From contig OZ024743.1 of NCBI GenBank assembly GCA_964016885.1, positions 62,248,001-62,312,000 on the forward strand: 64,000 nucleotides of DNA, written 5' to 3'. Under the pieces are notes generated by a model, which was not told the DNA's origin, made no database searches, and worked only from the letters and a program-made list of their open reading frames with translations. A program made the position numbers and the translations under genes. Below are positions 11,301 to 63,204 of the stretch, in pieces (positions within the stretch are counted from its first letter, which is position 1; each line of letters begins with the position of its first letter). This DNA is from Eledone cirrhosa (Eukaryota).

Positions 11301-12701
11301 ATGTTTGGCAGTTTCAATATTGATTCTGTTTATTCATATTTCGTTTGCAAAAGATTAATCTTGATTAAATAACCATCTTGCTAATTATTCCATTTCCTCA
11401 ACGTAACTATTTTTTATACACAGTCTACTGTTTATAACTTTGCCTGTACATTAAAGTTGTTGTAATTTCGTCGTTTCCAGTGATAACTATTCCAGTTGTT
11501 TGATAAACTAGATAGTTTGCTTGTGAAATCATATAGCGTGCAAGTGGCTGAGCATTCTACAGTCTCGTGTGCCCTTAACGTAACTCTTAGAGAAATTGTG
11601 TATATGTGGTAGATTGTATAGTATAAACGAACACCTATAAGTGCATAAAGGATCTATTCATTCACATATACACCCTCGCCAATAAATGCACAGAGCTACA
11701 TAATAATTGTTATATAATCTTATACACACATCGTAATACACTCAGAAGAATGTACACTGTCATGCGATATATATGCATGTCTACTAACAGTTAAGTATTT
11801 CTGTCGTATGAAACTTGATATATACATATCTGTATGTCTAGAACAAAAGTTCATCTTCTACTCATATCATATGATTACGATAACATACACATACACGCAT
11901 ATATATATATGTATGTGTGTGTATGTATGTATGTATGTATGTATGTATGTATGTATGTATGTATGTATGTATGTATGTATGTATGTATGTATGTATGTAT
12001 GTATGTGTGTATGTGTGTGTGTATTTATGTGTGTGTATGTATGTATGTATGTATGTATGTACGTATGTCTATACACACACACACACATATAAATTATGTG
12101 TATATATATATATGTAAATTTTTATATATGTGTGTGTGTGTGTGTGTGTGTATGTGTGTGTATGTAGTCTATAGGTCTATTGTGTGTGAAAGGGCGGAGA
12201 GGAAGAGAGAGAGGAGGGATGTGTTTATTTATTTTAGAGAGAATGTGAAAACTTTACTTACATCTGAATTCAACCGAATATGTTACCATACATGATATAT
12301 TTGATCATTTCTGTATCTATCTGTTGTACTTACATCTAAAATTCCTTGGTGGTTTACCAGACATCGAATGTGAGGGGGTGGCAGTCACTCGACTTAATTG
12401 ACATCCAACACATTGACACTGATCTTTCAACATACGATGGAATCGTAGGGGCGCCGTCATGACATTCGGCGTTTCTTAGACATTTTAAACCTGGTGAAAC
12501 CTATCTGTTTCCATATTTGACCACAACCGATTCCTATAAAGACGGCATGGCTACACATTTCCCCATCTCTCATGACTTTTGAAAATCATGAAATTTGTGA
12601 AACCGGTAAAGTCGTAAATTATTGTAAACAAACCTTAAAGACTCCAATTGCATTTTTGACATTTTTTCCTATATTTTTACCAGTGGGACATATTAGAAAA
12701 C

Positions 12702-13289: not shown

Positions 13290-13831
<542 letters not shown>

Positions 13832-15404
13832 ATTATATATACATATATGTGTGTATGTATATTTATATGTACACATATATGTATGAAGATGGGTGTGTGT
13901 GTGTGTATTCGAAATTAAAGTTTTTTCTGATATGTCCCACGGGTAAAAATATAGGTTTAAGGTTTGTTTACAATAAATTATGACTTTACCGGTTTCAGAA
14001 GTTTCATGATTTTCAATAGTCATGAGAGATGGGGAAATGTGTAACCATGCTGTCTATATATATATATAGGAAAATAGTCAGGACCCCGACGGCTGAGCTC
14101 CGGCCGTTTCGACAGCATATTCGGATCTAGCTGTCGAAACGGTGTGTTAGTTTAGTTATTAGATGACCTTTGAAGAGATTTTTTTAAAGAAATAGTCAGA
14201 AAGTGACCCTCCTCCTTCAACTAACTTACTCTCTGCCTCTGGGCCTCGACCGACAGGCTGGAGAATACATTGCCCGGAGGACGGCGAGGCAGACGCGCTG
14301 GAACAGCTACTCCACCTCCCGGGAGTTAATAAACCGTAAAATCAAATATGTCGATGTATATTTGAATCATTCTTCTGTCACGAAAGAAATTCTTATTTCT
14401 AGTTCATATCTTATCTTTGCTTAATTAAAGTTGCGTGTCACAATTTTGTAGAGAATAAATTTCGTTATATTAAATTAATTATGCTGCAAGAGGAAATATA
14501 TAGTTTTGCATGTCAAAAATATAGTGTTTCTCTTTTCATGCATTAGATACAATAACACATCACACTCTCTCAGAAAACCGCTCAGAGGCCAGTATTTCTT
14601 CCAGTATTTCTTCCAGTTATTAATGGTTTCTGATTTAGGCACAAAGCCAGCAATTTGGGGGAGGGGAAAGTGCATTACTGGTGCTTTCTTTTATCAACCC
14701 CGTAAGGATGAAAGGCAAAGCTAACCTCGGTGGGATTTGAACTCAGGGCGTAAAGGGCCGTAACTCTATGCCACAAAGCATGTTGTCCGACTTTCTAACG
14801 ATTCTGCCAATTCACCACACTCTTTCTTCCAATAATTAATTGTTTCTTCTTTTGGCACAAGGCCACCAATTATCTCAGTACATTACTGGTGCTTTATTTT
14901 ATTGACCCCATAAGGATGAAAGACAAAGTTAACCTCGGCGGGATTTGAACTCAGACCATAAAGGGCCGTAACTCTTTGCTATAAAGCATGGCATCAGAAC
15001 CTCTAATGATACTGCCAATACATAATAATAAAGGCAGAAAAAATCAATATGATCAATAAGTTTTTAGTGAATGGTAATAATTTTAGCGTCTCCCATCAAG
15101 TGAATAGCCGTTTATTTCAATACAGTCTAAAGTACATATTGTTGATGATGATGATGATGTGTTTGTTTTCCCCTATGTCAGCCCAGATAGTGTAAGCTTA
15201 TCATTAAAAGCTTTCCAGCTATGACCCTCCGGTTTTTTTTTTGGGGGGGGGGGTCTTTTTTGTCTTTTTTTTGTCTTTTATTGCTTGTTTTTTTTTTGTA
15301 TATCCAAGACTACATTCTACTTTGTCCTTTTTTATTTAAAGAATGTGACTTAAGAGGGATTGACTCCTGTTTCTAGTCAATCAAGTAACCGTATACAGTC
15401 TCTC

Positions 15405-15711: not shown

Positions 15712-15719
<8 letters not shown>

Positions 15720-16206
15720 GGGAAGTAAGGATTCTATACAAAACAGTGGATATAGAGAAAAGGTGAAGTTGGAAATAGCACGGAAAATATATTTAAGGGT
15801 CTGTTTTTCTTTTTTGATTCGTCAAAGTGACATTATTGAAAAGATAACATTATTGAAAAAATGAGAGGAACAATTCTTTTTTAAAAAAAGTTATATAATG
15901 TATATAAAGTGTATGAAGAATTATCCGTTTCGATGTATTATTAAAATCCATCTTATCAAATGTTGAGTGTTGAAATAAAAATTAAAAAGAATTAATAACT
16001 CCAAACATTTGATTTTAATTTTAAATCCTTAGTTTTAAACTCCTATTAATTCGAAACGGATAAGTCTTCATACACTTTATATACATTATAAAACTTTTTT
16101 TTAAAAATAATTGTTTCTCTCATCTTTTCAATAATGTCACTTTGACGAAACAAAAAAGAAAAACAGACTCTTAAATATATTTTCCGTGCTATTTCCAACT
16201 TCACCT

Positions 16207-16215
<9 letters not shown>
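15712..16215 (-). mobile_element. PLE-derived fold-back cassette in (TA)n
   Basis: Arms about 15752-15933 and 16050-16215 meet at TCGAAACGGATAA; degenerate hammerhead on minus strand (UUGAUAA-GAUG/CAUC-GAAAC); tail 15712-15751. Confidence 0.7.
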
Positions 16216-20758: not shown

Positions 20759-20833
<75 letters not shown>

Positions 20834-20877
20834 AATCAAAAAGAACAGAAAGATACAGTAAAAGAGATTTATTCGGT

Positions 20878-20992
20878 TCTAACGTACGTTTCAATAGACA
20901 TCAATTTGCCTAGATCTCGCTGCATCTATAATATTATATAGTTAGTAGAGCATTCGACATCCAATGCACAATCGATTCCATATCATCAGAGA
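20878..20992 (-). ncRNA. type I hammerhead ribozyme, mirror copy in the other pLTR arm
   Basis: Reverse complement of 22747-22861. Confidence 0.75.
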
Positions 20993-21375
20993 TTATGTTT
21001 ACCGTACCAGAATGTTCAGGTTTTTATAGGAATTCATGTGAAGTTGAAGTAGAGAAGAAGGAGGATGTGACAAAGACGAGAGAGATAGGGGGGGTTTTCA
21101 TGGTTGTTGAGGTAAAACAGAGGGCAGGATAAAATACGATAATGAAGTCTAGATATGGACTAGTACAACTGTGTGTGTGCTAGGGAGATGGTAGACGTTG
21201 ATAGGTTTATGATCTATGATAGATGGAGGCAGGGGAGATTAGGCCGAGTGAGTTGTAAAGTATGTAGGAGGAGATGTTGAATAGGGGAGATGTGGTCAAT
21301 AGAAGGCATAGCAATAATCCATGGGGACAGATAGAGGAGGTAGAAGGAAGATAGAGGAAAGCAGAAGTCGCAGGA

Positions 21376-22365
21376 TCAAATCAAGCCAGGTTTGTATTTC
21401 GAGAACGTAGCCTTGAGTCTGTGATTGCAATATAGAGTCCTTTCCGTTCTGTTGTTGAGAAGAGTATAATTCGATTTTAGTATGTAAAATAGCTCCATAT
21501 TGCATAATCAGCAGTAAGGCTGGCCAGCACGATATGTGGAAGCACTAGCGAGTTTTGTCCATTTCAAAGTGTATTGCAGGTTACTTTCGCGCAACTGCCA
21601 AATTGTATTGGTTAAGGTAGTTACGGAACGGTATTTGGTGTTCTTCATCGAACTACGGTGTTGGTACCAACGAGATTTAAAAGTGGTAGAGGTACAGCCG
21701 ATATAGTGCCATCTCCGGTTATCCGATTCAACGGTGCATTGATACACCATATTGGATTCCATGCATTTGTTATTCAGAGGGCAACGATCAGGTAGGTTGC
21801 AGTTGCACTTATCAGCTCTTGTAGTAGGTTGCGTTAGGTTTATATGTGTGTCTGCTGCAGGAGGGTTTACATTCAGTGGTTGAGAGTTTGAGGAAGTGTT
21901 AATGTAGTTTGGGGTGCTTCGTGTGGATGTGCTGACTAATCGTTTGGAGTTAAGTTTTTTAATAATTAGATCGAGATTGGGTGCTGTAGAATATGAAAGC
22001 TTAATGGACCTTAGATTTAGTATTTTAGCGTATCGATGTGCAGGAGGAAAATGTGTTTTGATTAAATTGAAGAAAAGTGAAGAAATTTTAGGAGATGTTG
22101 AGGCATTGTATATTGGGTTGTACCAAAGGTAGCTACGATTCCGCTTTCTAGCTAGGTTGGGTTGTGTGCTTCTATTTCGACTATGCCTGTGCGGAAAGTG
22201 TATGTTGTGTATCGTACCTATATTATTGTTTATGCTAGTGCGTTGTGAGCCCTTATTTCTATATTGGTGTGCTGGATCTATGTACTCTATTTTGTCTTGG
22301 TATCCAGCCGCCTTAAGCACGTTGTTATAGTAGTAAGCGTGCTCACTAAAGACCTGGGGGGTAGA
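21376..22365 (-). pseudogene. PLE ORF remnant: RT thumb, linker and GIY-YIG endonuclease
   Basis: RKRNRSYLWYNP..., IKLSYS, CNC....CPL...C, VYQCTV...YIGCT...FKSRWYQH; reads through a TGA at 21508 (YC*LC) into LCNMELFYIL...LLNNRTERTLYCNH to the stop at 21376. Confidence 0.9.
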
Positions 22366-22746
22366 TGATTTGATCCTGCGACTTCTGCTTTCCTCTATAT
22401 TCCTTCTACCTCCTCTATCTGTCCCCATGGATTATTGCTATGCCTTCTATTGACCCTATTCAACATCTCCTCCTACATACTTTACAACTCACTCGGCCTA
22501 ATCTCCCCTGCCTCCATCTATCATAGATCATAAACCTATCAACGTCTACCATCTCCCTAGCACACACACAGTTGGACTAGTCCATATCTAGACTTCATTA
22601 TCGTATTTTATCCTGCCCTCTGTTTTACCTCAACAACCATGAAAACCCCTCTATCTCTCTCGTCTTTGTCACATCCTCCTTCTTCTCTACTTCAACTTCA
22701 CATGAATTTCTATAAAAACCTGAACATTCTGGTACGGTAAACATAA

Positions 22747-22861
22747 TCTCTGATGATATGGAATCGATTGTGCATTGGATGTCGAATGCTCTACTAACTA
22801 TATAATATTATAGATGCAGCGAGATCTAGGCAAATTGATGTCTATTGAAACGTACGTTAGA
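22747..22861 (+). ncRNA. type I hammerhead ribozyme in PLE pLTR, long stem II
   Basis: UCU-CUGAUGA-(about 90 nt stem II)-GAAA-CGUACGUU-AGA; palindromic stem III ACGUACGU, cleavage triplet GUU. Confidence 0.75.
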
Positions 22862-23052
22862 ACCGAATAAATCTCTTTTACTGCATCTTTCTGTTCTTTT
22901 TGATTCTTTATACACGCCCCGGAGTATAGCTAAACTGGAATATACACCTATTTTCTGCATTTCGTTGAGCACCACTCTGTTGTAAGCTAACCTTCCCCTA
23001 CACGGTACATAACACTGTGTCCGGGAAAACCTTAATGCACTCGTGCATAACC

Positions 23053-24581: not shown

Positions 24582-24673
24582 GAGAGAGAGAGAATGTGTG
24601 TGTATAATATGCCCCAAGGGTCTGATACCATCAACACTATAAACAGAGAGCTGGCATATCTAAGAACTGACTA

Positions 24674-24729
24674 ACTGCCTGATGAGGCCATAGCCATTCA
24701 ATGGCTATCATCGAAATATATATAGCAGT
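24674..24729 (+). ncRNA. type I hammerhead ribozyme (solo PLE 3' end)
   Basis: ACUGC-CUGAUGA-GGCC-AUAGCCAU/AUGGCUAU-CAUC-GAAA-UAUAUAUA-GCAGU; stem I ACUGC/GCAGU, palindromic stem III. Confidence 0.8.
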
Positions 24730-24774
24730 AAATAAAGGATTATGAGTTCATGCAATTGACTTATGTTTCGTCAC

Positions 24775-32847: not shown

Positions 32848-34099
32848 TGTGACTATGTATATATGCAAGAATTGCTGGATGTAGGCACAAAATAAACAAA
32901 CTACACCTTAGGATTTTGCAATCCGAAGGGACCTCAGAAGGCATATGTGTTTTCAGTTTTTGAAAGTCCTTCTGGTATAAAATATTAACAAGGGGCTTCC
33001 AAGCTTTATACAGCTTAAGATCTTACCAAAACTAAATCCGGTCACGATGCAAAGCAAAACTATATATTTTTGAGAGAGAGGGAGAAAGAGAAAGAGAGTG
33101 TGTAGGGGGGGGGGGTCGGCTTTTACAATAGGTACGCCGTATCCCTGCGTTCATGTGAGGTACAACTAAAAGGATTGGCATCAGAAAGCATCCGGCTATA
33201 AAACATCGTTTCAAAATATCCCGTCAAGCCCATGCCAACATGGAGATGTAAAAACGACGATAATAATAACAATGATTTCTACTATAGGCACAAGGCCAGA
33301 AATTTGGGAGGGAGAGGAAAGTCGATTAACTCGACCCCAGTACTTACTGGTACTTTATTTTATCGATCCCCGTAAGGATGAAAGGCAAAACTAACCTCAG
33401 CGGGATTTGAACTCAGAACGTAAAGGGCCATAATATAGATGTAGGGATTAAACTAGTAATAACATTATTCAGCAAATTACTCGATACTTAAAAGTAAAGT
33501 GTGGCCATATTAGAAAGAGTCGGTGCCTGAACTGGCTGTCGAAACGGCAAAGACTCAGCCGTCGGGCCCTGACTCTTTCTAATATGTATAATATATATGG
33601 GGGGGGGTATCCCGTAAACTGGGAGTTCGACAAAAATGATCGATAAAATGAGTAGTGTGAGACACATGATTAAATCAAGGCGATACCTCAGCATGGCCGT
33701 AACCAGTAAACGAAAAAGAAATGTGTGCGTATATATATATATATATGTATGTATGTATATATGAGTGCACATCTATATATGTTGTATGTGTACGGATATA
33801 TTTGAGTGGATGTGTGTGAGAGAACGTGCATAACTGTTTATGTGTGTACGCGTATGCATGTATATGTATATGTTTATGTATATGCAAGTATGTGTATATA
33901 CATGCCATGGGTGCACATAAAATCAGGGTTTCGGTCTACAGTTAAGTAGTTATTGGAAATATTTTATTTTTAATAAATCAATTCACAGTTGCATAAAGAA
34001 CATTACAAATATTGATAGAAATATGAAAGAAAAACAAAGGATAAAAAGAAAACCAAGCAATGAACAGACGGACGAAGGGGTAAAGAAGGGCAGATCTAA

Positions 34100-36710: not shown

Positions 36711-37852
36711 GGTGCGTACATGTTGTAGATTGGAGCGGGGTTGATCATATAAGAAAGTATTTTTATTGATGTATCTGGAACATATGTGTGTGCGTCGGGG
36801 TGTGTAATAACTCACGTGCTGTTTGTTATGTGTGTGCCCGCTCTATGTAGTGTATGTAGCTTTGTTTATAGATGTTTTGAATATACAGATTATGGTAACA
36901 GACTTTTGGAATTGAAGCATGTTTGTGTATGTACACACTATTGTTATTGTTTTTGTGTTTTTGTTGCATTCCAAGCCACACTTACACACAGGTTCAGACA
37001 CATATGTATATACACATATATATGTATATACATATGCACGTACATCACATACGTTAACGTACAGTGATGCACTTACATGCGTTTATACATACATACATAG
37101 ATATTCAAATACGCACAATCACTCACCATACGCACACATAGCAAGCATACACTCATTGCATACTCATACACAAACAGATACGACACACACCTTCACAAAA
37201 GAACACTCCACATGATACACACTCGCACACACACACATCACACATACATACAAATACAACACACATATATACACACATCACCCACGCACACCCTTATATA
37301 TATATATACACACACACACATCACACAAACTCACTCAAACACACTCATTCATACAGTATATGCATACGCATACATCCCTTTGAATCGCCTTCAGCCCACC
37401 CCCACCAACTCTCTCACCACTATCACCTCTCTCACCGCCACCACCCCATCTCCTCTCTCACCACCACCATCACCTCTCACCACCATCACCACCACCACCT
37501 CTCTCACCACCGTCACCATCCCCGCCATCTCTCTCACCACCAACCACCACCTCTCACCGCCATCTCTCTCACCACCAACCACCACCTCTCACCGCCACCA
37601 CACCCCCTCCCCTCTCACCACCATCAACATCACTTTCACTATCATCACGGCCACCATCACCACCTTTCTCACCGCCACCACTCCCACCTTTCTCACCGCC
37701 ACCACCCCCACCTCTCTCACCGCCATCACCACCGCCACCCCCACTTCTCTCACTACCCCCACCACCCCCATCTTACAAACAAACAATGATTCAGAAATGA
37801 TCCAAGTTATTTACCTTACAATGAACATTAATTAAACTAATTAACTATCGGC

Positions 37853-40800
37853 ATGATGGTGTGGTGGATAGTGTGGTGGTGGTGGTGTGGTGGATAGTGT
37901 GGTGGTGGTGGTGTGGTGGATAGTGTGGTGGTGGTGGTGTGGTGGATAGTGTGGTGGTGGTGGTGTGGTGGATAGTGTGGTGGTGATGGTGTGGTGGATA
38001 GTGTGGTGGTGGTGGTGTGGTGGATAGTGTGGTGGTGGTGGTGTGGTGGATAGTGTGGTGGTGGTGGTGTGGTGGATAGTGTGGTGGTGGTGGTGTGGTG
38101 GATAGTGTGGTGGTGGTGGTGTGGTGGATAGTGTGGTGGTGGTGGTGTGGTGGATAGTGTGGTGGTGATGGTGTGGTGGATAGTGTGGTGGTGGTTGTGT
38201 GGTGGATAGTGTGGTGGTAGTGTGGTGGATAGTGTGGTGGTGGTGGTGTGGTGGATAGTGTGGTGGTGGTGGTGTGGTGGATAGTGTGGTGGTGGTGGTG
38301 TGGTGGATAGTGTGGTGGTGGTGGTGTGGTGGATAGTGTGGTGGTGGTGGTGTGGTGGATAGTGTGGTGGTGGTGGTGTGGTGGATAGTGTGGTGGTGGT
38401 GGTGTGGTGGATAGTGTGGTGGTGATGGTGTGGTGGATAGTGTGGTGGTGGTGGTGTGGTGGATAGTGTGGTGGTGGTGGTGTGGTGGATAGTGTGGTGG
38501 TGGTGGTGTGGTGGATAGTGTGGTGGTGGTGGTGTGGTGGATAGTGTGGTGGTGGTGGTGTGGTGGATAGTGTGGTGGTGATGGTGTGGTGGATAGTGTG
38601 GTGGTGGTGGTGTGGTGGATAGTGTGGTGGTGGTGGTGTGGTGGATAGTGTGGTGGTGGTGGTGTGGTGGATAGTGTGGTGGTGGTGGTGTGGTGGATAG
38701 TGTGGTGGTGGTGGTGTGGTGGATAGTGTGGTGGTGGTGGTGTGGTGGATAGTGTGGTGGTGGTGGTGTGGTGGATAGTGTGGTGGTGGTGGTGTGGTGG
38801 TGGTGTGGTGGATAGTGTGGTGGTGGTGGTGTGGTGGATAGTGTGGTGGTGGTGGTGTGGTGGATAGTGTGGTGGTGGTGGTGTGGTGGATAGTGTGGTG
38901 GTGGTGGTGTGGTGGATAGTGTGGTGGTGATGGTGTGGTGGATAGTGTGGTGGTGGTGGTGTGGTGGATAGTGTGGTGGTGGTGGTGTGGTGGATAGTGT
39001 GGTGGTGGTGGTGTGGTGGATAGTGTGGTGGTGGTGGTGTGGTGGATAGTGTGGTGGTGGTGGTGTGGTGGATAGTGTGGTGGTGGTGGTGTGGTGGATA
39101 GTGTGGTGGTGGTGGTGTGGTGGATAGTGTGGTGGTGGTGGTGTGGTGGTGATGGTGTGGTGGATAGTGTGGTGGTGGTGGTGTGGTGGATAGTGTGGTG
39201 GTGGTGGTGTGGTGGATAGTGTGGTGGTGATGGTGTGGTGGATAGTGTGGTGGTGGTGGTGTGGTGGATAGTGTGGTGGTGGTGGTGTGGTGGATAGTGT
39301 GGTGGTGGTGGTGTGGTGGATAGTGTGGTAGTAGTGGTGTGATGGATAGTGTGGTGGTGGTGGTGTGGTGGATAGTGTGGTGGTGGTGGTGTGGTGGTGG
39401 TGTGGTGGATAGTGTGGTGGTGGTGGTGTGGTGGATAGTGTGGTGGTGGTGGTGTGGTGGATAGTGTGGTGGTGGTGGTGTGGTGGATAGTGTGGTGGTG
39501 ATGGTGTGGTGGATAGTGTGGTGGTGGTGGTGTGGTGGATAGTGTGGTGGTGGTGGTGTGGTGGATAGTGTGGTGGTGGTGGTGTGGTGGATAGTGTGGT
39601 GGTGGTGGTGTGGTGGATAGTGTGGTGGTGGTGGTGTGGTGAATAGTGTGGTGGTGGTGGTGTGGTGGATAGTGTGGTGGTGGTGGTGTGGTGGATAGTG
39701 TGGTGGTGGTGGTGTGGTGGATAGTGTGGTGGTGGTGATGGTGTGGTGGATAGTGTGGTGGTGGTGGTGTGGTGGATAGTGTGGTGGTGGTGGTGTGGTG
39801 GATAGTGTGGTGGTGGTGGTGTGGTGGATAGTGTGGTGGTGGTGTGGTGGATAGTGTGGCGGTGGTGGTGTGGTGGATAGAGTGGCGGTGGTGGTGTGGT
39901 GGATAGTGTGGCGGTGGTGGTGTGGTGGATAGTGTGGTGGTGTGGTGGATAGTGTGGTGGTGGTGGTGTGGTGGATAGTGTGGTGGTGATGGTGTGGTGG
40001 ATAGTGTGGTGGTGGTGGTGTGGTGGATAGTGTGGTGGTGATGGTGTGGTGGATAGTGTGGTGGTGGTGGTGTGGTGGATAGTGTGGTGGTGGTGGTGTG
40101 GTGGATAGTGTGGTGGTGGTGGTGTGGTGGATAGTGTGGTGGTGGTGGTGTGGTGGATAGTGTGGTGGTGGAGGTGTGGTGGATAGTGTGGTGGTGGTGG
40201 TGGTGTGGTGGATAGTGTGGTGGTGGTGGTGTGGTGGATAGTGTGGCGGTGGTGGTGTGGTGGATAGTGTGGCGGTGGTGGTGGTGTGGTGGATAGTGTG
40301 GTGGTGGAGGTGTGGTGGATAGTGTGGTGGTGGTGGTGGTGTGGTGGATAGTGTGGTGGTGGAGGTGTGGTGGATAGTGTGGCGGTGGTGGTGTGGTGGA
40401 TAGTGTAGCGGTGATGGTGTGGTGGATAGTGTGGTGGTGGTGGTGTGGTGGTGGTGTGGTGGATAGTGTGGCGGTGGTGGTGTGGTGGATAGTGTGGTGG
40501 TGGTGGTGGTGTGGTGGATAGTGTGGTGGTGGAGGTGTGGTGGATAGTGTGGCGGTGGTGGTGTGGTGGATAGTGTAGCGGTGATGGTGTGGTGGATAGT
40601 GTGGTGGTGGTGGTGTGGTGGATAGTGTGGCGGTGGTGGTGTGGTGGATAGTGTGGTGGTGGTGGTGGTGTGGTGGATAGTGTGGTGGTGGTGGTGTGGT
40701 GGATAATGTGGTGGTGATGGTGTGGTGGATAGTGTGGTGGTGATGGTGTGGTGGATAGTGTGGTGGTGGTGATGGTGTGGTGGATAGTGTGGTGGTGGTG

Positions 40801-43800
40801 ATGGTGTGGTGGATAGTGTGGTGGTGGAGGTGATGTGGTGGATAGTGTGGTGGTGGTGGTGTGGTGGATAGTGTGGTGGTGGAGGTGTGGTGGATAGTGT
40901 GGTGGCGGTGGTGGTGTGGTGGTGGTGGTGTGGTGGATAGTGTGGTGGTGGTGGTGTGGTGGATAGTGTGGTGGCGGTGGTGGTGTGGTGGATAGTGTGG
41001 CGGTGGTGGTGTGGTGGATAGTGTGGTGGTGGTGGTGTGGTGGTGGTGGTGTGGTGGATAGTGTGGCGGTGGTGGTGTGGTGGATAGTGTGGCGGTGGTG
41101 GTGTGGTGGATAGTGTGGCGGTGGTGGTGTGGTGGATAGTGTGGCGGTGGTGGTGTGGTGGATAGTGTGGCGGTGGTGGTGTGGTGGATAGTGTGGCGGT
41201 GGTGGTGTGGTGGATAGTGTGGCGGTGGTGGTGTGGTGGATAGTGTGGTGGTGGTGGTGTGGTGGATAGTGTGGTGGTAGTGGTGTGGTGGATAGTGTGG
41301 TGGTGTGGTGGATAGTGTGGTGGTGGTGGTGTGGTGGATAGTGTGGCGGTGGTGGTGTGGTGGATAGTGTAGCGGTGGTGGTGTGGTGGATAGTGTGGTG
41401 GTGGTGGTGTGGTGGATAGTGTGGCGGTGGTGGTGTGGTGGATAGTGTGGCGGTGGTGGTGTGGTGGATAGTGTGGTGGTGGTGGTGTGGTGGATAGTGT
41501 GGCGGTGGTGGTGTGGTGGATAGTGTGGTGGTGGTGTGGTGGATAGTGTGGTGGTGGTGGTGTGGTGGATAGTGTGGCGGTGGTGGTGTGGTGGATAGTG
41601 TGGTGGTGGTGGTGTGGTGGATAGTGTGGTGGTGGTGGTGTGGTGGTGGTGGTGTGGTGGATAGTGTGGCGGTGGTGGTGTGGTGGATAGTGTGGCGGTG
41701 GTGGTGTGGTGGATAGTGTGGTGGTGGTGGTGGTGTGGTGGATAGTGTGGTGGTGGTGGTGTGGTGGATAGTGTGGTGGTGGTGGTGTGGTGGATAGTGT
41801 GGCGGTGGTGGTGTGGTGGATAGTGTGGCGGTGGTGGTGTGGTGGATAGTGTGGCGGTGGTGGTGTGGTGGATAGTGTGGTGGTGGATAGTGTGGCGGTG
41901 GTGGTATGGTGGATAGTGTGGTGGTGTGGTGGATAGTGTGGCGGTGGTGGTGTGGTGGATAGTGTGGCGGTGGTGGTGTGGTGGATAGTGTGGTGGTGCT
42001 GGTGTGGTGGATAGTGTGGTGGTGCTGGTGTGGTGGATAGTGTGGTGGTGTGGTGGATAGTGTGGTGGTGGTGGTGGTGTGGTGGATAGTGTGGTGGTGG
42101 TGGTGTGGTGGATAGTGTGGTGGTGGTGGTGGTGTGGTGGATAGTGTGGTAGTGGTGGTGTGGTGGATAGTGTGGTGGTGGTGGTGTGGTGGATAGTGTG
42201 GCGGTGGTGGTGTGGTGGATAGTGTGGTGGTGGTGGTGTGGTGGATAGTGTGGTGGTGGTGGTGGTGTGGTGGATAGTGTGGTGGTGGTGGTGTGGTGGA
42301 TAGTGTGGCGGTGGTGGTGTGGTGGATAGTGTGGTGGTGATGGTGTGGTGGATAGTGTGGCGGTGGTGGTGTGGTGGAAAGTGTGGCGGTGGTGGTGTGG
42401 TGGATAGTGTGGTGGTGGTGATGGTGTGGCGGTGGTGGTGTGGTGGATAGTGTGGCGGTGGTGGTGTGGTGGATAGTGTGGTGGTGGTGGTGTGGTGGAT
42501 AATGTGGTGGTGGTGGTGGTGTGGTGGATAGTGTGGTGGTGGTGGTGTGGTGGATAGTGTGGTGGTGGTGGTGGTGTGGTGGATAGTGTGGTGGTGGTGG
42601 TGTGGTGGATAGTGTGGCGGTGGTGGTGTGGTGGATAGTGTGGTGGTGATGGTGTGGTGGATAGTGTGGCGGTGGTGGTGTGGTGGAAAGTGTGGCGGTG
42701 GTGGTGTGGTGGATAGTGTGGTGGTGGTGATGGTGTGGTGGATAGTGTGGCGGTGGTGGTGTGGTGGATAGTGTGGTGGTGGTGGTGTGGTGGATAGTGT
42801 GGTGGTGGTGGTGGTGTGGTGGATAGTGTGGTGGTGGTGGTGTGGTGGTGTGGTGGTGATGGTGTGGTGGATAGTGTGGTGGTGGTGGTGTGGTGGATAG
42901 TGTGGTGGTGGTGGTGGTGGTGTGGTGGATAGTGTGGTGGTGGATAGTGTGGCGGTGGTGGTGTGGTGGATAGTGTGGCGGTGCTGGTGTGGTGGATAGT
43001 GTGGTGGTGTGGTGTGGTGGATAGTGTGGTGGTGGATAGTGTGGTGGTGGTGGTGTGGTGGATAGTGTGGCGGTGGTGGTGTGGTGGATAGTGTGGCGGT
43101 GGTGGTGTGGTGGATAGTGTGGCGGTGCTGGTGTGGTGGATAGTGTGGTGGTGGTGGTGTGGTGGATAGTGTGGTGGTGGATAGTGTGGTGGTGGATAGT
43201 GTGGTGGTGGTGGTGTGGTGGATAGTGTGGCGGTGGTGGTGTGGTGGATAGTGTGGCGGTGGTGGTGTGGTGGATAGTGTGGTGGTGTGGTGGATAGTGT
43301 GGTGGTGGTGGTGTGGTGGATAGTGTGGCGGTGATGGTGTGGTGGAAAGTGTGGCGGTGGTGGTGTGGAGGATAGTGTGGTGGTGGTGGTGTGGAGGATA
43401 GTGTGGTGGTGGTGGTGTGGTGGATAGTGTGGCGGTGCTGGTGTGGTGGATAGTGTGGCGGTGGTGGTGTGGTGGATAGTGTGGTGGTGGTGGTGTGGTG
43501 GATAGTGTGGTGGTGGTGGTGTGGTGGATAGTGTGGCGGTGCTGGTGTGGTGGAAAGTGTGGCGGTGGTGGTGTGGAGGATAGTGTGGTGGTGGTGGTGT
43601 GGTGGTGGTGGTGTGGTGGATAGTGTGGCGGTGATGGTGTGGTGGAAAGTGTGGCGGTGGTGGTGTGGAGGATAGTGTGGTGGTGGTGGTGTGGTGGATA
43701 GTGTGGTGGTGATGGTGTGGTGGATAGTGTGGTGGTGGTGGTGTGGTGGATAGTGTGGTGGTGGTGGTGTGGTGGATAGTGTGGCGGTGGTGGTATGGTG

Positions 43801-45190
43801 GATAGTGTGGTGGTGGTGGTGTGGTGGATAGTGTGGTGGTGGTGGTGTGGTGGATAGTGTGGTGGTGGTGGTGTGGTGGATAGTGTGGTGGTGGTGGTGT
43901 GGTGGATAGTGTGGTGGTGATGGTGTGGTGGATAGTGTGGTGGTGGTGGTGTGGTGGATAGTGTGGTGGTGGTGGTGTGGTGGATAGTGTGGCGGTGGTG
44001 GTATGGTGGATAGTGTGGTGGTGGTGGTGGTGTGGTGGATAGTGTGGTGGTGGTGGTGTGGTGGTGTGGTGGTGATGGTGTGGTGGATAGTGTGGCGGTG
44101 GTGGTGTGGTGGATAGTGTGGTGGTGGTGGTGGTGTGGTGGATAGTGTGGTGGTGGTGTGGTGGTGTGGTGGTGATGGTGTGGTGGATAGTGTGGTGGTG
44201 GTGGTGTGGTGGTGTGGTGGTGATGGTGTGGTGGATAGTGTGGTGGTGATGGTGTGGTGGATAGTGTGGCGGTGGTGGTGTGGTGGATAGTGTGGTGGTG
44301 GTGGTGGTGTGGTGGTGGTGTGGTGGATAGTGTGGTGGTGGTGTGGTGGTGGATAGTGTGGTGGTGGTGGTGTGGTGGTGGATAGTGTGGTGGTGGTGGT
44401 GTGGTGGTGTGGTGGTGATGGTGTGGTGGATAGTGTGGTGGTGATGGTGTGGTGGATAGTGTGGCGGTGGTGGTGTGGTGGATAGTGTGGTGGTGGTGTG
44501 GTGGTGGTGTGGTGGATAGTGTGGTGGTGGTGGTGTGGTGGATAGTGTGGTGGTGGTGGTGTGGTGGATAGTGTGGTGGTGGTGGTGTGGTGGTGGTGGT
44601 GTGGTGGATAGTGTGGTGGTGGTGGTGTGGTGGATAGTGTGGTGGTGGTGGTGTGGTGGATAGTGTGGCGGTGGTGGTGTGGTGGATAGTGTCGCGGTGG
44701 TGGTGTGGTGGATAGTGTGGTGTTGGTGGTGTGGTGGATAGTGTGGCGGTGGTGGTGTGGTGGATAGTGTGGCGGTGGTGGTGTAGTGGATAGTGTGGTG
44801 GTGGTGGTGGTGTGGTGGATAGTGTGGTGGTGGTGGTGTGGTGGATAGTGTGGCGGTGGTGGTGTGGTGGATAGTGTGGTGGTGGTGGTGGTGTGGTGGA
44901 TAGTGTGGTGGTGGTGGTGGTGTGGTGGATAGTGTGGTGGTGGTGGTGTGGTTGATAGTGTGGTGGTGGTGGTGGTCTGGTGGATAGTGTGGTGGTGGTG
45001 GTGTGGAGGATAGTGTGGCGGTGGTGGTGTTGTGGATAGTGTGGCGGTGGTGGTGTAGTGGATAGTGTGGTGGTGGTGGTGGTGGTGTGGTGGATAGTGT
45101 GGCGGTGATGGTGTGGTAGATAGTGTGGCGGTGGTGGTGTGGTGGATAGTGTGGTGGTGGTGGTGTGGTGGATAGTGAGGTGGTGGTGGT
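37853..45190 (+). repeat. 7.3 kb satellite, 26-bp unit GTGGTGGATAGTGTGGTGGTGGTGGT (roughly 280 units)
   Basis: GATA recurs every 26 bp (37867, 37893, ...); variants differ by GGT triplets and by GGC, GAT, GAG or GAAA substitutions. Confidence 0.97.
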
Positions 45191-45714
45191 TTTGGTGGGG
45201 ACAGCGATGGTTGTGATGGTGGTGGTGATGCTAGTGGGGTTGGGGGTGATAATAATATTGGTGGTGGTAGTGAGAGGGATTATGGTAGTGGTATTAAGTG
45301 TGGGGTGGTTATGGTGGCGGCGGCGGTGGTGGTAGTGATGCTAGTGGGGTGGAGGTGGTAGTGATGGTAATGATGGTAGTGAGGGGGGGGGGGGGGGGGG
45401 GGTTATGGTGATGGTAGTAACGTTTCTAATAATAATTTCTACTATAAGCACAAGGCCAGTAATTTGGCGGGAGGGGAAAGTCGATTAAATAGACTCAGTA
45501 AATTACTGGTACTTTATTTTATCGACACCGTAAGGATGAAAGGCAAAGTTAACTTCGGCGGGATTTGAACTCAGAACGTAAAGAGACATAACTCTATGCT
45601 GCGAAGCATGGTGTCTGACGCTCTACCGATTCTGCCAATCCACCACATTGAGTAACGTTTCTAATGATGATGGTATGTGGAGGTGGGTATAATGACGATA
45701 ATGATGTCGTTGGT

Positions 45715-52532: not shown

Positions 52533-52559
<27 letters not shown>

Positions 52560-52563
<4 letters not shown>

Positions 52564-52747
52564 AACAGTCAGGACCCAACGATTGAGCTCTTGCCGTCTC
52601 AAAAGGTAGTTCCGGAACTAGCTTTTGAGACGGCAAGAGCGTAAGCCGTCGGGTCCTGACTCTTTATATAGCTGTACTCTATTACCCCAAGAATCGAGTT
52701 CTCTGTTGAATATTGGTCTAACTAGTTTTAAACTGATTCCATACTGA
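52560..52747 (+). mobile_element. fold-back cassette, GGACCCCGACGGC family
   Basis: Imperfect palindrome 52560-52668 plus tail, TA-flanked; relatives at 14068-14142, 33535-33580, 54383-54574 and 60044-60248. Confidence 0.7.
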
Positions 52748-52759
52748 TATATAAATATA

Positions 52760-52975
52760 TAGAAGTGGTAACACAACAGTTCACCATACCGAGAATAATT
52801 GTTTCACCTTAGCGGATCTTCAGCTCGTACACCTGAACGAGCTGAAGATCCGCTAAGGTAAAACAATTGTTCTCGGTATGGTGAACTAACTGTTGTGTAA
52901 CCACTTCTACCTAACTCGTCCTATGGACTGAGTGCTTTACCACTACGGATATTACCTTCCAGTGTTCTACCTCTC

Positions 52976-53014: not shown

Positions 53015-53690
53015 TGCCAATAAAAATAACCACACCAGTTGTATTTCCTTTCGGTTTTATTATTAGGCAGTTAACTATTCGATTCCTTAGTTTCAAAACT
53101 CTTTCGTCACACATCCTGTGACCTTCTGAGTGATTATTTTTGCCCTCGTTTTAATTTGTGTGTGTGTGTGTGTGTGTGCGTCTTTGTATATTGCTACTCC
53201 CGCAGGTTTCTGTGTCTTGTATGTTTGTATCTTTATATTGGTTCGTCCTCAAATTTCTGCATATATGGTGTGTTTGTGAATGCCCCACCAGCCTTCGTAT
53301 GTCTACTTATCTATGCAAATATGTAAATTCTCTTTCACACTTCTACGCTTGTCGCTATGTCTGACTGTGTATCCATTCCTATGTATCGTAATATTTTTGT
53401 CACTTGTCACTAGGTAGAGGTGTTCTTCCTTATCTATTCCTGCTTTCTACTGGGGGCTCATTTATATTTGTTTGTGCATTCCTGTGTATGTATTCCTATG
53501 TCACTAAGTTGTGGGATTGTTGCTATTCCACTCCTGCTTTCTATTGAGGGTGGATTTAGTTTCTGTTATATATGCGGCTTCCTTTATGTGTCTGAGGATT
53601 ACAGACGATGCAATTTCTGTCAATACGATGGGTTTTCTTAAATAGGTAAGTTCTGCTGATTAAGGATTTGGTGGAGATACCTGATTTTCC
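53013..53690 (-). mobile_element. PLE 3' remnant (GIY-YIG C-terminus plus decayed hammerhead)
   Basis: Minus strand about 53520-53640 reads KPIVLTEIASSVILRHIKEAAYITETKSTLNRKQEW (R.IKEA.YI...P.LNR-like); GUCACA/UGUGAC-GAAA hairpin at about 53093-53133 resembles the 13.5 kb motif. Confidence 0.6.
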
Positions 53691-54382: not shown

Positions 54383-54569
54383 TAACGAAGGAGGTGTGGG
54401 ACCATAACGCACCAGAGTACTCAATACTTAGGGTAGTAGAGTGGGTAATAGGAAAATGTTTAAGCCCGACGGCAGAACTCAAGTCGTTTCGACGGCTCTT
54501 TCTGGAGGACTAAATTAGAATGTTTAGAAATTCTAATTTAGTCCAGAAATAGTCGGGGTTAAACATTTT

Positions 54570-54574
<5 letters not shown>
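54383..54574 (-). mobile_element. fold-back cassette, GGACCCCGACGGC family
   Basis: Tail homologous to 60171-60248 in reverse; arms 54447-54469 and 54552-54574; (TA)n flanks. Confidence 0.7.
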
Positions 54575-55908: not shown

Positions 55909-55912
<4 letters not shown>

Positions 55913-56101
55913 TTAATATAGATGAGATTCTACAGGACGAGAACTGTTTCATTCTTTAGAAATCATCAGGAATCTGATGATTTCTAAAGAATGAAACTGT
56001 TCTAGTCCTGTAGAATCTCATCTATATTAAAACTTTTATACTCTGCTATTTATTGAGTACCTTACATACTGTGGTTACCTCCGATTCAACCCGGAATAAC
56101 T

Positions 56102-56107
<6 letters not shown>
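55909..56107 (+). mobile_element. fold-back cassette with hammerhead
   Basis: Near-perfect 126-bp palindrome 55909-56034 with 4-nt loop, tail to 56107, (TA)n on both sides. Confidence 0.8.
55926..55974 (-). ncRNA. type I hammerhead ribozyme
   Basis: GAUUC-CUGAUGA-UUUCUAAAGAAU-GAA-ACAG uucucguc CUGU-A-GAAUC; cleavage triplet GUA. Confidence 0.8.
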
Positions 56108-56180
<73 letters not shown>

Positions 56181-58355: not shown

Positions 58356-58478
58356 ACGTTAATGAGTGTGCCATCAACAATGGAGGATGTGAACATGGTT
58401 GTTCGAACACCATAGGATCTTTCTACTGTAAATGTCCACCTGGTTTCCGGACTGGATCTGATGGAAAAGGTTGCATAG
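58356..58478 (+). CDS. MEGF6: MEGF6-like gene, calcium-binding EGF exon
   Basis: ttgcAG acceptor, GTAAC donor, phase 1-1; [41 protein letters not shown] is a canonical cbEGF and the domain expected after EGF1 in MEGF6. Confidence 0.95.
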
Positions 58479-58511
58479 GTAACTATCAAATAATCATTCT
58501 GGTTACTTGTG

Positions 58512-58540
<29 letters not shown>

Positions 58541-58552
<12 letters not shown>

Positions 58553-58722
58553 AAGAATCAAAGAACTGTTCAAAACATTATATAATGTTTTGAACAGTTC
58601 TTTGATTCTTATATTTCATATAACTGCTCTGTAAATCATCTGATTGTACATTGAGCTACTTAACTTACTGGTAATAAGGTAGTAATACATTACTGCCTAC
58701 CACTATTTAGGGTTTGTATAAA
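58541..58722 (+). mobile_element. perfect 82-bp palindrome plus tail in (TA)n
   Basis: 58541-58622 is its own reverse complement with no loop; arm end resembles the 20.8/22.9 kb pLTR end (AAGAATCAAA...GAAC). Confidence 0.7.
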
Positions 58723-59590: not shown

Positions 59591-59631
59591 TTCAAAATAT
59601 TAACAAAAATAGACATTCGTGTGATCAAGTA

Positions 59632-59698
59632 TATTTTATTATACATATTTCAGAGGTACTGAGCTATCTTCAACAGTACGTCCTCATCAGATAAAATA
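59632..59698 (-). ncRNA. type I hammerhead ribozyme
   Basis: UAUUUUAU-CUGAUGA-..GUACUG/CAGUAC..-GAAA-UAUGUAUA-AUAAAAUA; 8-bp stem I. Confidence 0.75.
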
Positions 59699-59840
59699 AG
59701 ATGATGCATGACATACCCTGACTAAGTGGATGGTTAAAATTCAGTCATGGCAGTGACTAATCTAATCTATTGTAAAACTTTATTCTTTGATTTATTCATT
59801 GAACCTTGTTTAACCTTTAAAAAATATATATATATATACA

Positions 59841-60009
59841 TAAAGTTTATCCCGGGTTCAATCGGGGGTAACCACAGTAAGTAAGGTACTCAATACATAG
59901 CAGAGTATAAATATTTAATATAGAAATAGCTTCTACAGGAGTAGAACTGTTTCATTTGGGCTTCCTGATGATTTCTCTCCAGTGAAACAGTTCTAGTCCT
60001 GTAGAAGCC

Positions 60010-60019
<10 letters not shown>
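59841..60019 (-). mobile_element. fold-back cassette, same family as 55909-56107
   Basis: Tail 59841-59917 is a reverse homolog of 56035-56107; arms 59918-59954 and 59983-60019. Confidence 0.75.
59959..60009 (+). ncRNA. type I hammerhead, same family as 55926-55974
   Basis: GGCUUC-CUGAUGA-...-GAA-ACAG/CUGU-A-GAAGCC; stem I covaries with the 55.9 kb copy (GAUUC/GAAUC); stem II is weak. Confidence 0.72.
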
Positions 60020-60043
<24 letters not shown>

Positions 60044-60048
<5 letters not shown>

Positions 60049-60248
60049 AACGAGTAGGACCCCGGCGGCTGAGCTCAAGCCGTTTCGACGGCTAATTCTG
60101 GACGGCTAATATCCAGAATTAGCCGTCGAAACGGCTTGAGCTCAGCCGTCGGGGTCCTACTCGTTCCTATTACCCACTCTACTACCCTAAGTATTGAGTA
60201 CTTTGGTGCGTTATGGTCCATCTGGTTCCTTACCACATTTCCTTCGTT
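60044..60248 (+). mobile_element. fold-back cassette, GGACCCCGACGGC family
   Basis: Near-perfect palindrome 60044-60170 containing GAAACGGCU..AGCCGUC (3' half of a hammerhead); tail 60171-60248; (TA)n flanks. Confidence 0.78.
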
Positions 60249-61417
60249 ATATATATATATATACACCGAGAAATTTAGTTTTGTTTTTGATATTTCTTGC
60301 TAAAATATATGTCTATGGCATATGTGAAGTTTCGTGGCTTAATGATGAACGTGCTGGAGTCTTTAGTCCTTCATAAAATTACTTAGATCTTATACCAACG
60401 ATACCAAGAGGTGTTATGTCTGCCTCAGTGATTTAGGATCTTACAAGGTTTGTCCTTAGTGAATAACTATTTGAACTCTAAGAACGAAATTTTTAAAGGA
60501 TGTCTACATCCTAGAGGCCAACTCCTTGCTAAGTGGAAACACTCAATGAATTCACCTAACCTTCAAACACTTTAACATAAATTTCTATACTTTCTAAATA
60601 ACACTTACATAATACGGTACACATGCTATACTACTCAACGTTAACACTTAAATGAAATAAAAATCTCTATATTACATACCACTACATAACATTATACATC
60701 TGCTGTATTGAGTACACACCACCACAATTTGATACAAATGTCTGTACATTATGGCAGTATCGGTAGAGAGTCGGACGCCATGCTTTGACGCATAGTTACG
60801 GCCCTTGCCATTCTGAGTTCAAATCCCGCCGAGGTTAACTTTGCCTTTCATCCTTACGGGGTCGATAAAATAAAGTACCAGTGATGCACTGGGTAATTAC
60901 TGGCCTTGTGCCAAAAGTAGAAACAATTATTATTACAATACCGAACAACAGACATAAATATACATTTCAATTTTACATCTTGAGTTATTTCCCTTTGCTT
61001 AACTTAATTGTAATTGTGGCGGCGTTCACCCGGGGTGCGTTGAGTCGGACCCATCGAAATAATTCACGGTGTAAGTTCCTTTCAGTGGAGTTTCTTCGGC
61101 CGATTAGTTTCACAAGCGGTGCCCAGCTGCAAGTATATGCACTTTGGGATAGTGCAATCCAAGCATTGCATAGCGCCGACCTCTTGCTTTCACATCCAAC
61201 CCAATTTGATGGAGCCAGTGTCGTGACAGGGAAATTTGAGAGGGAGTTTGGCCGGCAGAGGTGATAAACGCAACCTATTTGAGTCACTTTGTAGGTCAGC
61301 AGGAGCTAAACCCACTGCCCAGTTCAGGCATACCTTTGCTATAGAACGTAAATAATCAAATATTTCATAAAGGAGAGTTAACATGCTATAATTTTAACGG
61401 TATATTCAAACTCGTCC

Positions 61418-61518
61418 AAGCACCTGATGACTAGGTCACGAATTTGATCGCTCCTCCGTTCATTTTGCACTCCTGTGCACAATCTGGAGAGATGGCCGTG
61501 AAACCTTAGGTAGCGCTT
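61418..61518 (+). ncRNA. type I hammerhead with extended stem II
   Basis: AAGCAC-CUGAUGA-(about 70 nt)-GAA-ACC uua GGU-A-GCGCUU. Confidence 0.7.
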
Positions 61519-61725
61519 TTTGTACTGCGTATGAACATTAATAAATGATTAATAAATGATATATATCAGCTCTCACCGCAGATTAAGCAGTTTTCCTTTT
61601 TCCTATCCACCTACACACACATACACACACACACACACTCACACACACACATACACACACACATTCACACACACATATATAAATATATATATATATTATT
61701 TATTTATGTTCATTCACGGAACACG

Positions 61726-61833
61726 AAGCGCTACCTATGGTTTCAAGGTCCAATTATGATCATCTTCCCAGATTGTGCACGTTGGTGCAGAGTGGAAGAG
61801 CGATCAAATTTGTGACCTACTCATCAAGCGCTT
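61726..61833 (-). ncRNA. diverged hammerhead copy (UUGAUGA core), inverted relative to 61418-61518
   Basis: AAGCGC-UUGAUGA-..AGGUC/GACCU..-GAA-ACC aua GGU-A-GCGCUU. Confidence 0.65.
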
Positions 61834-63204
61834 GATATATTTGATATATCATATATATTAAATACAACAAGAATGTAAATTACTTAATAGACGTGAATAG
61901 AATATCGAGTTACATCAAATATAGAACTATGATATAATATAATATATCATTTAATAGAAAATAATGTAGACAAAATGACACATCGAAATAAATCAAGACA
62001 CATATTTAAATGAAGATATATATGTTTTCCCCTAGACATAAATATGTTTTTCGCTGACATTTGCATTTAAGAAACACATATACATACAAATGTGCTCTTA
62101 GGCAGGCACCAAAGAGATCATAAATAGCACCAGTTTTTTACCGTTTTCTTGTTGGCATGGGTTGGACGCGTTGTCACATTCTGTTGTAAAACAGGTCAGG
62201 TGACCACTTCTTGCTTATGCGTTCCATTTTGAACTAGAGTCTGGAAAATGTTGCCTGCAGCCACTGTCAACATCTATTCGTCTTTACGGGTCTTTACCTG
62301 ATTTCTATAAGCTATTTTATAGCAACTGACTGTAATTGTAGTTGTTTTCTACACTTGAACATCCGACATCTTCTTATAAATAATGATTGCTAGTATAAGC
62401 ACAAGGCCAATAATTTGGGGGAGGGGAAAGTCGATTGAATTGACCCCAGTGCATTACTGGTGCTTTATTTTATCGACCCCGTAAGGATGAAAGGCAAGGC
62501 AAAGCTAACCTCGTAGTTGTTGTTGGTGGTGGTGGCATTTTCGTGCAAGGTTTACAGAAGTGCCCGATGGATTTGTATATACCGAGATATATTAAATTTA
62601 AAACAATAATATAATACTTTTCCTGTTATACATGAACGAGCTATATCCCATTACCTCCACCCCACCCCCACGCCGATGACACCACACTTCAGTCTTCTCT
62701 AACCTCTCGCACCTAAGCGCCATCTACACACAACCTAAACACGTCACACTTACTCTACACTGACTCCATGAACAAAGGCCCTTAAACCTACTCCAATGTC
62801 GTCTCCTTCAATAGCAAAAAAATCGCATCGAAAACCAATATCGTAAACTCCCTTTAAACTGAATGTATTTGTATGTTGGTCCTTCGAGGATGAGTTTTCA
62901 TGGAACTCCCTGCTTGTGAAATTAACGTTCAAATGGCTGCACATTCCACAGTCACGTGTATCCTTATCGTACTTGTCCAGTAGATACTTCCTGATACAGT
63001 GTATGAATAGACAGGCACTTTGAATTACATGTATAACTAATGTTTGCTGGCTGAGTGGACTGAAGCAACGCGAAATAAAGCGCCTTGCTCAAGGTCACAA
63101 TGTACGGTCGGATATCTTACTCATCACCGTTAGTTTGTGAGCCGAAATCCCAAATCAGTAAACCACGCGCATTCACAAAAACTTAATCGTGATTAGCACG
63201 GCAC

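Follow-up and report, generated by a model that had tools for sequence, protein, structure and literature searches.

Head-to-head, 5′-truncated ends of Penelope-like elements in TA repeats may arise from two strand-primed cDNAs that run off at the RNA 5′ end

The 64,000-nt stretch of AT-rich, microsatellite-dense animal DNA analyzed here (the window) contains a set of short fold-back insertions that are head-to-head, truncated ends of Penelope-like elements (PLEs) lying in TA repeats. The explanation that we narrowly favor is that each was assembled from two cDNAs, primed by the two strands of the cut target, that ran off at the 5′ end of the element RNA and were then joined. The insertions share a head-to-head geometry, a tail-less arm with a fixed end, an asymmetry between arms that runs both ways, and 5′ ends that cluster; from these features we infer the two primings, an RNA start at the cluster and the mode of joining. 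The original prediction had proposed instead that a single cDNA stalls or snaps back at the ribozyme stems and is copied.

Results

Fold-backs and the 60044 family

Self-comparison and inspection identified 12 fold-backs of one build in the window: five copies of the family to which the palindrome at 60044 belongs (the 60044 family), two members of another family (55909 and 59842), and those at 52760, 13290, 15712, 58541 and 20827. In 11 of the 12, one arm carries a 42-134-nt extension (the tail) and the other arm stops at a TA-rich or simple repeat. The flanks are TA repeats, which obscure any target-site duplication. The 60044 family comprises the following features.

60044..60102, minus strand: tail-less inverted arm, stopping at a family-wide fixed site beside (TA)n
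60103..60111: junction insert private to 60044, a templated copy of 60087-60096
60112..60170, plus strand: forward arm, a truncated pLTR (by sequence comparison)
60128..60157, plus strand: hammerhead-like 3′ half with GAAA, 5-bp stem III, predicted cut after 60150 and the 3′ strand of stem I
60171..60248, plus strand: one-sided 78-nt tail, with an RCTC..GAGY hairpin at 60176-60199
14068..14142: family copy with a tail-less left arm and a 13-nt right arm
33450..33586: family copy overlooked in the original prediction, with a short tail-bearing arm and a long tail-less arm
52558..52748: family copy, a near-perfect palindrome centered 13-14 nt upstream of GAGA
54384..54574: family copy with the tail at left and the turn 28-39 nt upstream of GAAA

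The palindrome at 60044 consists of 59-nt arms (60044-60102 and 60112-60170) with one mismatch and a 9-nt spacer (self-BLAST E 3e-45); it has (TA)n borders on both sides and extends by 78 nt, to 60248, on one side only. The predicted relatives at 14068, 52560 and 54383 do align with it, giving five aligned copies in the window (14068, 33450, 52558, 54384 and 60044). The 13-mer that four copies were said to share occurs exactly at two places and with one mismatch at one, and the copies at 52560 and 54383 differ more. The tail-less end of the family is fixed at 60170 in all four read runs, and 3571 and 3094 raw reads cross 60170 into a TA repeat.

The five copies have five different junctions. 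The copy at 14068..14142 is centered on a native TAG..CTA mini-hairpin and has lost its right end, and the minus-strand, tail-bearing arm of 33450..33586 lacks the whole ribozyme half while its plus-strand, tail-less arm starts 19 nt upstream of GAAA. The tail of 52558..52748 reaches 52748, and its two arms have rare variants in common; the tail-less arm of 54384..54574 has an internal deletion. Internal deletions between short direct repeats are seen in the tail-less arms at 13605-13726 and 54530-54574. The 5′ ends of the family in the window lie at −6, −13/14, −16, −19 and −28 to −39 from GAAA, with one further end (the tail-bearing arm of 33450..33586) 8 nt past the predicted cut. Because these ends are clustered yet not identical, they do not represent one inherited junction. 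Depth is flat within 1.7-fold over 60126-60225 and amounts to 0.06% of the peak before 60111, and at 60112 the loose ends differ among themselves (agreement 0.45-0.48). In run X1, 20,629 contigs align with this family and 155 with the long element described below.

The insert at 60103..60111 is private to 60044, since depth at 60106-60110 is 0.06% of the peak (contig run X1). Together with the cDNA end it forms a 10-bp hairpin with a computed DNA folding energy of −9.3 kcal/mol. These two properties make a local fold-back during joining plausible, and the insert may be either a 10-bp fold-back of the cDNA end or slippage on the other cDNA. An assignment of 60101-60111 as the native 5′ strand of stem II was dropped, as read mapping shows the insert to be private to this copy.

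Ribozyme anatomy of the 60044 family

As predicted, the family retains only a hammerhead-like 3′ half. The series GA(A/G)AC-GGC..GCC-GUC-GGG is present in all five copies, as the GAGA variant in 52558..52748, and the C-GAAA, stem III and UH features of a type I hammerhead are found. Of 42 cells in stem III, 90.5% are paired, without compensatory change. CUGAnGA is absent from the 60 nt upstream of GAAA in all five copies, even allowing one mismatch, and this core and the 5′ strand of stem I are also absent from the 30-nt loose-end consensus of the family. An Rfam search detected no hammerhead, with none among the best 150 of 175 weak matches. Given no Rfam match and no covariation, the label of a hammerhead 3′ half in this family rests on motif anatomy.

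No 5′ half of this ribozyme occurs within the window. Exact-pattern scans for the intact form returned no match in metagenomes (two scans) or in prokaryote genomes, and the viral scan returned two matches in GC-rich phage sequence, without an upstream core, that look like chance. A type II (permuted) hammerhead was rejected because no core follows stem I by inspection. The sequence near 14165 that was proposed as a remnant of GACCC-CUGAnGA proved to lie 3′ of GAAAC and to have no stem I partner, and we reject it as a remnant. No core or promoter was found upstream in this family, so that run-off at a promoter stays a prediction there; its 5′ limit could be caused either by a coreless master or by stops inside a long stem II.

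A long Hydra-type element

The fold-back at 20827 is much longer and retains part of a coding region.

20827..23046: long head-to-head PLE insertion, arms 97% alike
20827-22365, minus strand: its tail-less arm
22366-23046, plus strand: its tail arm
21508..22365, minus strand: 5′-truncated ORF end with a CxCX5C linker and a GIY-YIG-like endonuclease without CCHH (Hydra type)
22711..22716, plus strand: TATAAA box, 39 nt upstream of CUGAUGA
22747..22861, plus strand: type I hammerhead with a 90-nt stem II, a palindromic stem III and a 3-bp stem I

In this insertion the tail-less arm exceeds the tail arm by about 990 nt, and the turns lie 384 and 1376 nt upstream of the ribozyme. The endonuclease remnant matches Pfam GIY-YIG with E 0.004, below the cut-off, and protein searches found no homologue of it. 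The fold-backs contain no reverse transcriptase sequence, the RWK and DKT region being absent from the 20827 element. This element sits in (TA)n and carries a hammerhead in its pLTR, and judged by sequence it fits the Hydra clade of PLEs. The tail-less end is fixed at 22912 in three of four runs, among the joints listed. From the TATAAA box at 22711, transcription is predicted to start near 22741-22743, at the 5′ edge of stem I. An unrelated ribozyme at 24679 is also preceded by TATAAA, at −41 (background 0.7% per 7-nt span), and the motif is absent at two other ribozymes with long upstream sequence (59690 and 13539). Run X5, from a related organism, has 3,203 contigs on the Hydra-type element as compared with 155 and 85 in the window’s species, which suggests a much larger Hydra-type expansion in that organism.

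Other families and fold-backs

55909..56108: second family; tail-less arm with a complete type I hammerhead, both 5′ ends close to its core (0 and −6)
59842..60019: second family; core and 5′ strand of stem I kept on the tail-less arm, start of the tail arm at GAAA
52760..52980: third family; CUGAAGA on both arms, ends 5-13 nt upstream
13290..13726: fourth family; minimal hammerhead
58541..58722: palindrome plus tail; perfect, zero-spacer, no ribozyme part kept
15712..16213: fold-back; arms start at CGAAAC, 117-nt spacer
60176-60199, 52676-52699, 56040-56058, 52914-52933, 58626-58655 and two minus-strand copies: RCTC..GAGY hairpins

Complete type I hammerheads were recognized by eye at 22750, 55909/59918, 52760, 13539, 24679, 59690 and 61424 (Rfam: none). 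In the 55909/59918 and 52760 families, inspection finds the core and stems I-III; the G10.1-C11.1 pair is absent from both, with U and U in its place. U at both 10.1 and 11.1, rather than the usual G-C, was observed in three families (22757/22846, 55981/55992, 59972/59983 and 52849/52859). Stem I covaries between 55909..56108 and 59842..60019.

The expectation that the turn falls a few nucleotides 5′ of CUGAnGA holds at 55909 (0 and −6) and at 52760 (−13 and −5, or about −8/−9 each). The tail-less arm of 55909..56108 has 4-6 extra native bases relative to its tail arm. One end of 59842..60019 is at about −10 from the core. In 13290..13726 the tail arm ends about 62-66 nt upstream and the tail-less arm starts in loop II. 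Both arms at 15712 start at CGAAAC as described, but they are 117 nt apart and do not meet. The turns of 20827, at 384 and 1376 nt upstream, and of 58541, which has no ribozyme part, are remote from the ribozyme.

An RCTC..GAGY hairpin, a motif picked after inspection of the tails, recurs in seven tails, representing four families, at 3-6 nt beyond the tail boundary (background 0.4%), and shows one paired change (58541). The copy at 33450..33586 has the GAGT half near 33478. This common hairpin links the coreless 60044 family to families with whole ribozymes and is a candidate protein-binding or initiation signal. The small families are putatively linked to the Hydra-type element, through layout and tail motif only.

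Other solo pLTR stubs with intact or decayed hammerheads lie at 24670-24730, 59628-59700 (minus), 61417-61566, 61679-61834 (minus) and 53093-53133 (minus). The 61417/61834 pair is tail-to-tail, with homology in common only from −7. Opposed copies, 92% alike, of another TA-flanked repeat occur at 12535-12639 and 13956-14060 (minus) and contain GAAACCGGTA, a possible decayed hammerhead. An EGF-like repeat exon with AG/GT borders lies at 58358-58479, and the elements likely sit in introns of a large EGF-repeat gene. The interspersed repeats of the window have an octopus-like appearance. The interval at about 37837-45340 is a 7.5-kb simple-repeat tract rich in G and T, in which GC skew reaches 0.99 and the 2,400-aa frames are spurious.

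Breakpoints cluster at the ribozyme 5′ edge

Four read or contig runs, three of them contig runs, were compared with the 20827 tail arm, which includes 384 nt upstream of the core. Summed contig depth, which is not copy number, rises 7.1-, 8.4- and 14.2-fold in the three contig runs from 22688-22710 to 22757-22779; runs X1 and X3 are one sample. This step is the largest 3-bin rise in each contig run, and the profile upstream of it is nearly flat. A short non-autonomous master could be the source of the step.

The joint table of the long element contains 10 joints, 7 of which connect opposite strands. Their upstream ends lie at −318, −40, −26, −12, −6, −3 and 0 from C3, and the partner ends scatter over +52 to +208. 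Thus 6 of 7 terminate within 0-40 nt 5′ of CUGAUGA, some 30 nt behind TATAAA, and simulation under seven nulls gives a chance of 0.0001-0.027 for 6 of 7 ends in any 41-nt window. Six of the seven joints come from the related organism (run X5) at 80% likeness. Four of the seven, along with a same-strand joint at 22740, are within 9 nt of the predicted RNA start. Joint tables leave unaligned letters inside a joint unreported, and, as they hold no symmetric fold-back though the window has three, they have a bias toward asymmetric joins. In the RAD runs, which begin from cuts at AATT (60117; 22705 and 22833), depth is uninformative upstream of those sites.

Within the window the same zone contains the ends of 55909 (0, −6), 52760 (−13, −5), 59918 (about −10) and the solo copy near 61834 (−7); 13347, 20827, 24679 and the second end of 59918 lie outside it. 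Neither a uniform spread along the pLTR nor a single inherited breakpoint, the two patterns set against the original prediction, was found: ends pile up at the ribozyme 5′ edge, and the five copies of the 60044 family differ from each other. The clustering that it anticipated is evident both in the 7-14-fold depth step and in 6 of 7 joints, but none is in the register of stem I or II.

Two cDNAs or one?

How are the two arms of such an insertion made? The original prediction has reverse transcription halting at the ribozyme stems, whereupon the unfinished cDNA folds back on itself and is copied; in the form considered here, the endonuclease would then trim this copy where the tail begins. Fold-back of a cDNA would yield the head-to-head geometry, and junction palindromes have been argued to reflect self-priming (PMC3846280). 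Moreover, the 60044 insert pairs over 10 bp with the cDNA end, the 52560 and 14068 copies are both centered on one short native hairpin, and the 52560 arms have rare variants in common. Six of the 12 fold-backs are compatible with this explanation and fit copy-back and two-cDNA models equally. In four of the 12 (20827, 59918, 33500 and 55909), however, each arm has element sequence that is absent from the other, and 54383 is suggestive of the same. The core is present on the tail-less arm only in 59918, and the asymmetry is opposite in 52760 and 13347. Since a copy of one cDNA cannot hold sequence that its template lacks, copy-back cannot make those four insertions.

The positions of the joints point the same way. 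For the long element, joint position sums are 45386-45708 and the stem I/II registers are 45608 and 45603; the nearest sum is 6 off, and none of the seven opposite-strand joints is in a stem I or II register. The enzyme moves 3′ to 5′ and reaches the stems at their 3′ feet, so that ends at the 5′ edge, beyond the stems, argue against stalling at them. In addition, the native mini-hairpins have little stability as DNA (−1.1 and 0 kcal/mol), and slippage on the other cDNA explains the 60044 insert too. A local fold-back is therefore plausible at 60044, but as a general mechanism snap-back fails on both stem register and reciprocally unique arms, and we regard it as unlikely.

A different proposal retains two cDNAs and attributes their ends to structure-induced stops, at a long stem II in the 60044 family and at the last helix elsewhere, instead of run-off. 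All but one of the 60044-family 5′ ends lie 6-39 nt upstream of GAAA, depth is flat from 60126 to 60225, neighboring families have a long stem II (90 nt at 22750), and local RNA stability peaks at 22734-22793. Yet no 5′ half of the 60044-family ribozyme was recovered in the window or in metagenome, prokaryote and viral scans, the GC-rich stem III is passed without loss, and the cluster of the 22750 family follows a TATA box. For these reasons we also consider structure-induced stops improbable.

We give still less credence to inheritance of the palindromes or 5′ limits from a few short non-autonomous masters, or to homogenization after insertion. The great abundance of the 60044 family (20,629 versus 155 contigs in X1), its sharp 5′ limit and the arm variants in common at 52560 would agree with such an origin, but five copies have five junctions, the loose ends at 60112 are heterogeneous (0.45-0.48), and the tail-less end is remade against fresh TA every time.

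Among the 15 of 30 joints listed for the 60044 family, the shorter side measures 59 nt at 60112-60164 and 55 nt at 60116-60164, exactly the length of the tail-less arm, so a 150-nt read has no room for a full partner arm; these joints argue against copy-back in further copies. In raw reads there is no depth step at the predicted cut, 60150/60151 (15822 to 15727; 15762 to 15718), which argues against cleaved RNA as the usual template. That one arm was templated on ribozyme-cleaved RNA, with its 5′ end at the cut site, is very improbable: the 33500 short arm does begin 8 nt past the predicted cut, the joints to 60164 permit starts from about 60132 to 60164 (15 of 30 joints listed), and X1 and X3 depth rises 2.6-3-fold just past the cut at 22858, but raw reads have no step at 60150/60151, X5 has no rise at 22858, none of the seven long-element joints is at 22859, and a family without CUGAnGA should not cleave.

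Discussion

In the two-cDNA model that we favor, both strands of the cut target would each prime their own cDNA on element RNA. Two fixed start sites, one tail-length apart, would give one tail-bearing and one tail-less cDNA, and reverse transcription starting on the nearby tail would proceed off the 5′ end of the RNA. That end probably lies at the ribozyme 5′ edge, which would account for the crowding of joins there. The two cDNAs would then probably be joined through short matches or templated filler, and the ribozyme would be a bystander, at most lending self-complementary bases to the join. Published work provides precedents for several of these steps. A PLE protein has been shown to cut the two target strands and extend each of them, with starts at two sites flanking the tail, and uncleaved RNA serves as template so that ribozyme cleavage is not needed (PMC11167929). 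The start site of Drosophila Penelope precedes an intron by 46 bp, and the intron end maps to the 5′ end of helix I (PMC2377424, PMC4209133). The PAc Poseidon system of PMC11167929, studied in vitro, resembles the present one in the two-strand cut and extension, start sites bracketing the tail and uncleaved template; it belongs to a different clade, and the part of PMC11167929 describing it does not address cDNA ends or the origin of inversions.

The closest likeness is to insertions of EN+ PLEs (PMC3846280, PMC8557442), which also have a head-to-head inverted copy with a tail on one side only, junction palindromes, microhomology joins and AT-rich targets. An inverted 5′-truncated pLTR next to the 5′ end is found in the 12 fold-backs, and the one-sided tail has a fixed boundary. 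The tails here are 42-134 nt as compared with the published 30-40, and most insertions here are <250 nt without an ORF, unlike those described. In the portions of these reports available to us, breakpoints were not mapped on the ribozyme. The Hydra clade, known from molluscs among others, has the same C-terminal GIY-YIG without CCHH, CxCX5C linker, (TA)n targeting and pLTR hammerhead (PMC8557442), whereas only the EN end survives here (21508-22365). Minimal PLE hammerheads share the type I motif with a short or palindromic helix III, and a 2014 report described dual motifs on opposite strands, separated by 100-700 bp (PMC4209133). Non-LTR retrozymes (bioRxiv 10.64898/2026.07.22.740005) are likewise non-autonomous pLTR derivatives, but the insertions here are single and head-to-head and not tandem monomers with intact hammerheads. 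In contrast to both minimal hammerheads and retrozymes, several families here have U10.1/U11.1, and the 60044 family has the 3′ half only.

The layout and the idea of self-priming are already known, junction palindromes having been read as self-priming in 2013 (PMC3846280), and these families may already be present in the consensus files of PMC8557442. Our literature search, which was poor in subscription papers and without supplements, found no publication that places PLE breakpoints relative to the ribozyme or the RNA start, and the main text on Octopus vulgaris repeat annotation, as far as available, does not mention hammerheads or palindromes (PMC13282606).

The origin of tandem and inverted PLE structures has been described as ‘still undefined’ (PMC8557442). 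The stubs described here are abundant and contain the junction as well as both ends within 150-250 nt, so that one assembly can separate double priming from copy-back and run-off from stalling, and reciprocal-arm comparison is a simple discriminator of mechanism. A hairpin family this abundant could also easily be mis-annotated as MITEs or miRNA precursors. We tentatively hypothesize, as a possibility about which we remain doubtful, that most PLE insertions here are ‘strong-stop’ products, in which both strands would prime at the RCTC..GAGY hairpin of the tail closest to the 5′ end of the RNA and run off the transcription start. Fold-back points would then be a fossil map of RNA starts, and one very abundant family would have lost the catalytic half of its ribozyme and spread as a hairpin-forming, SINE-like passenger of Hydra-clade PLEs.
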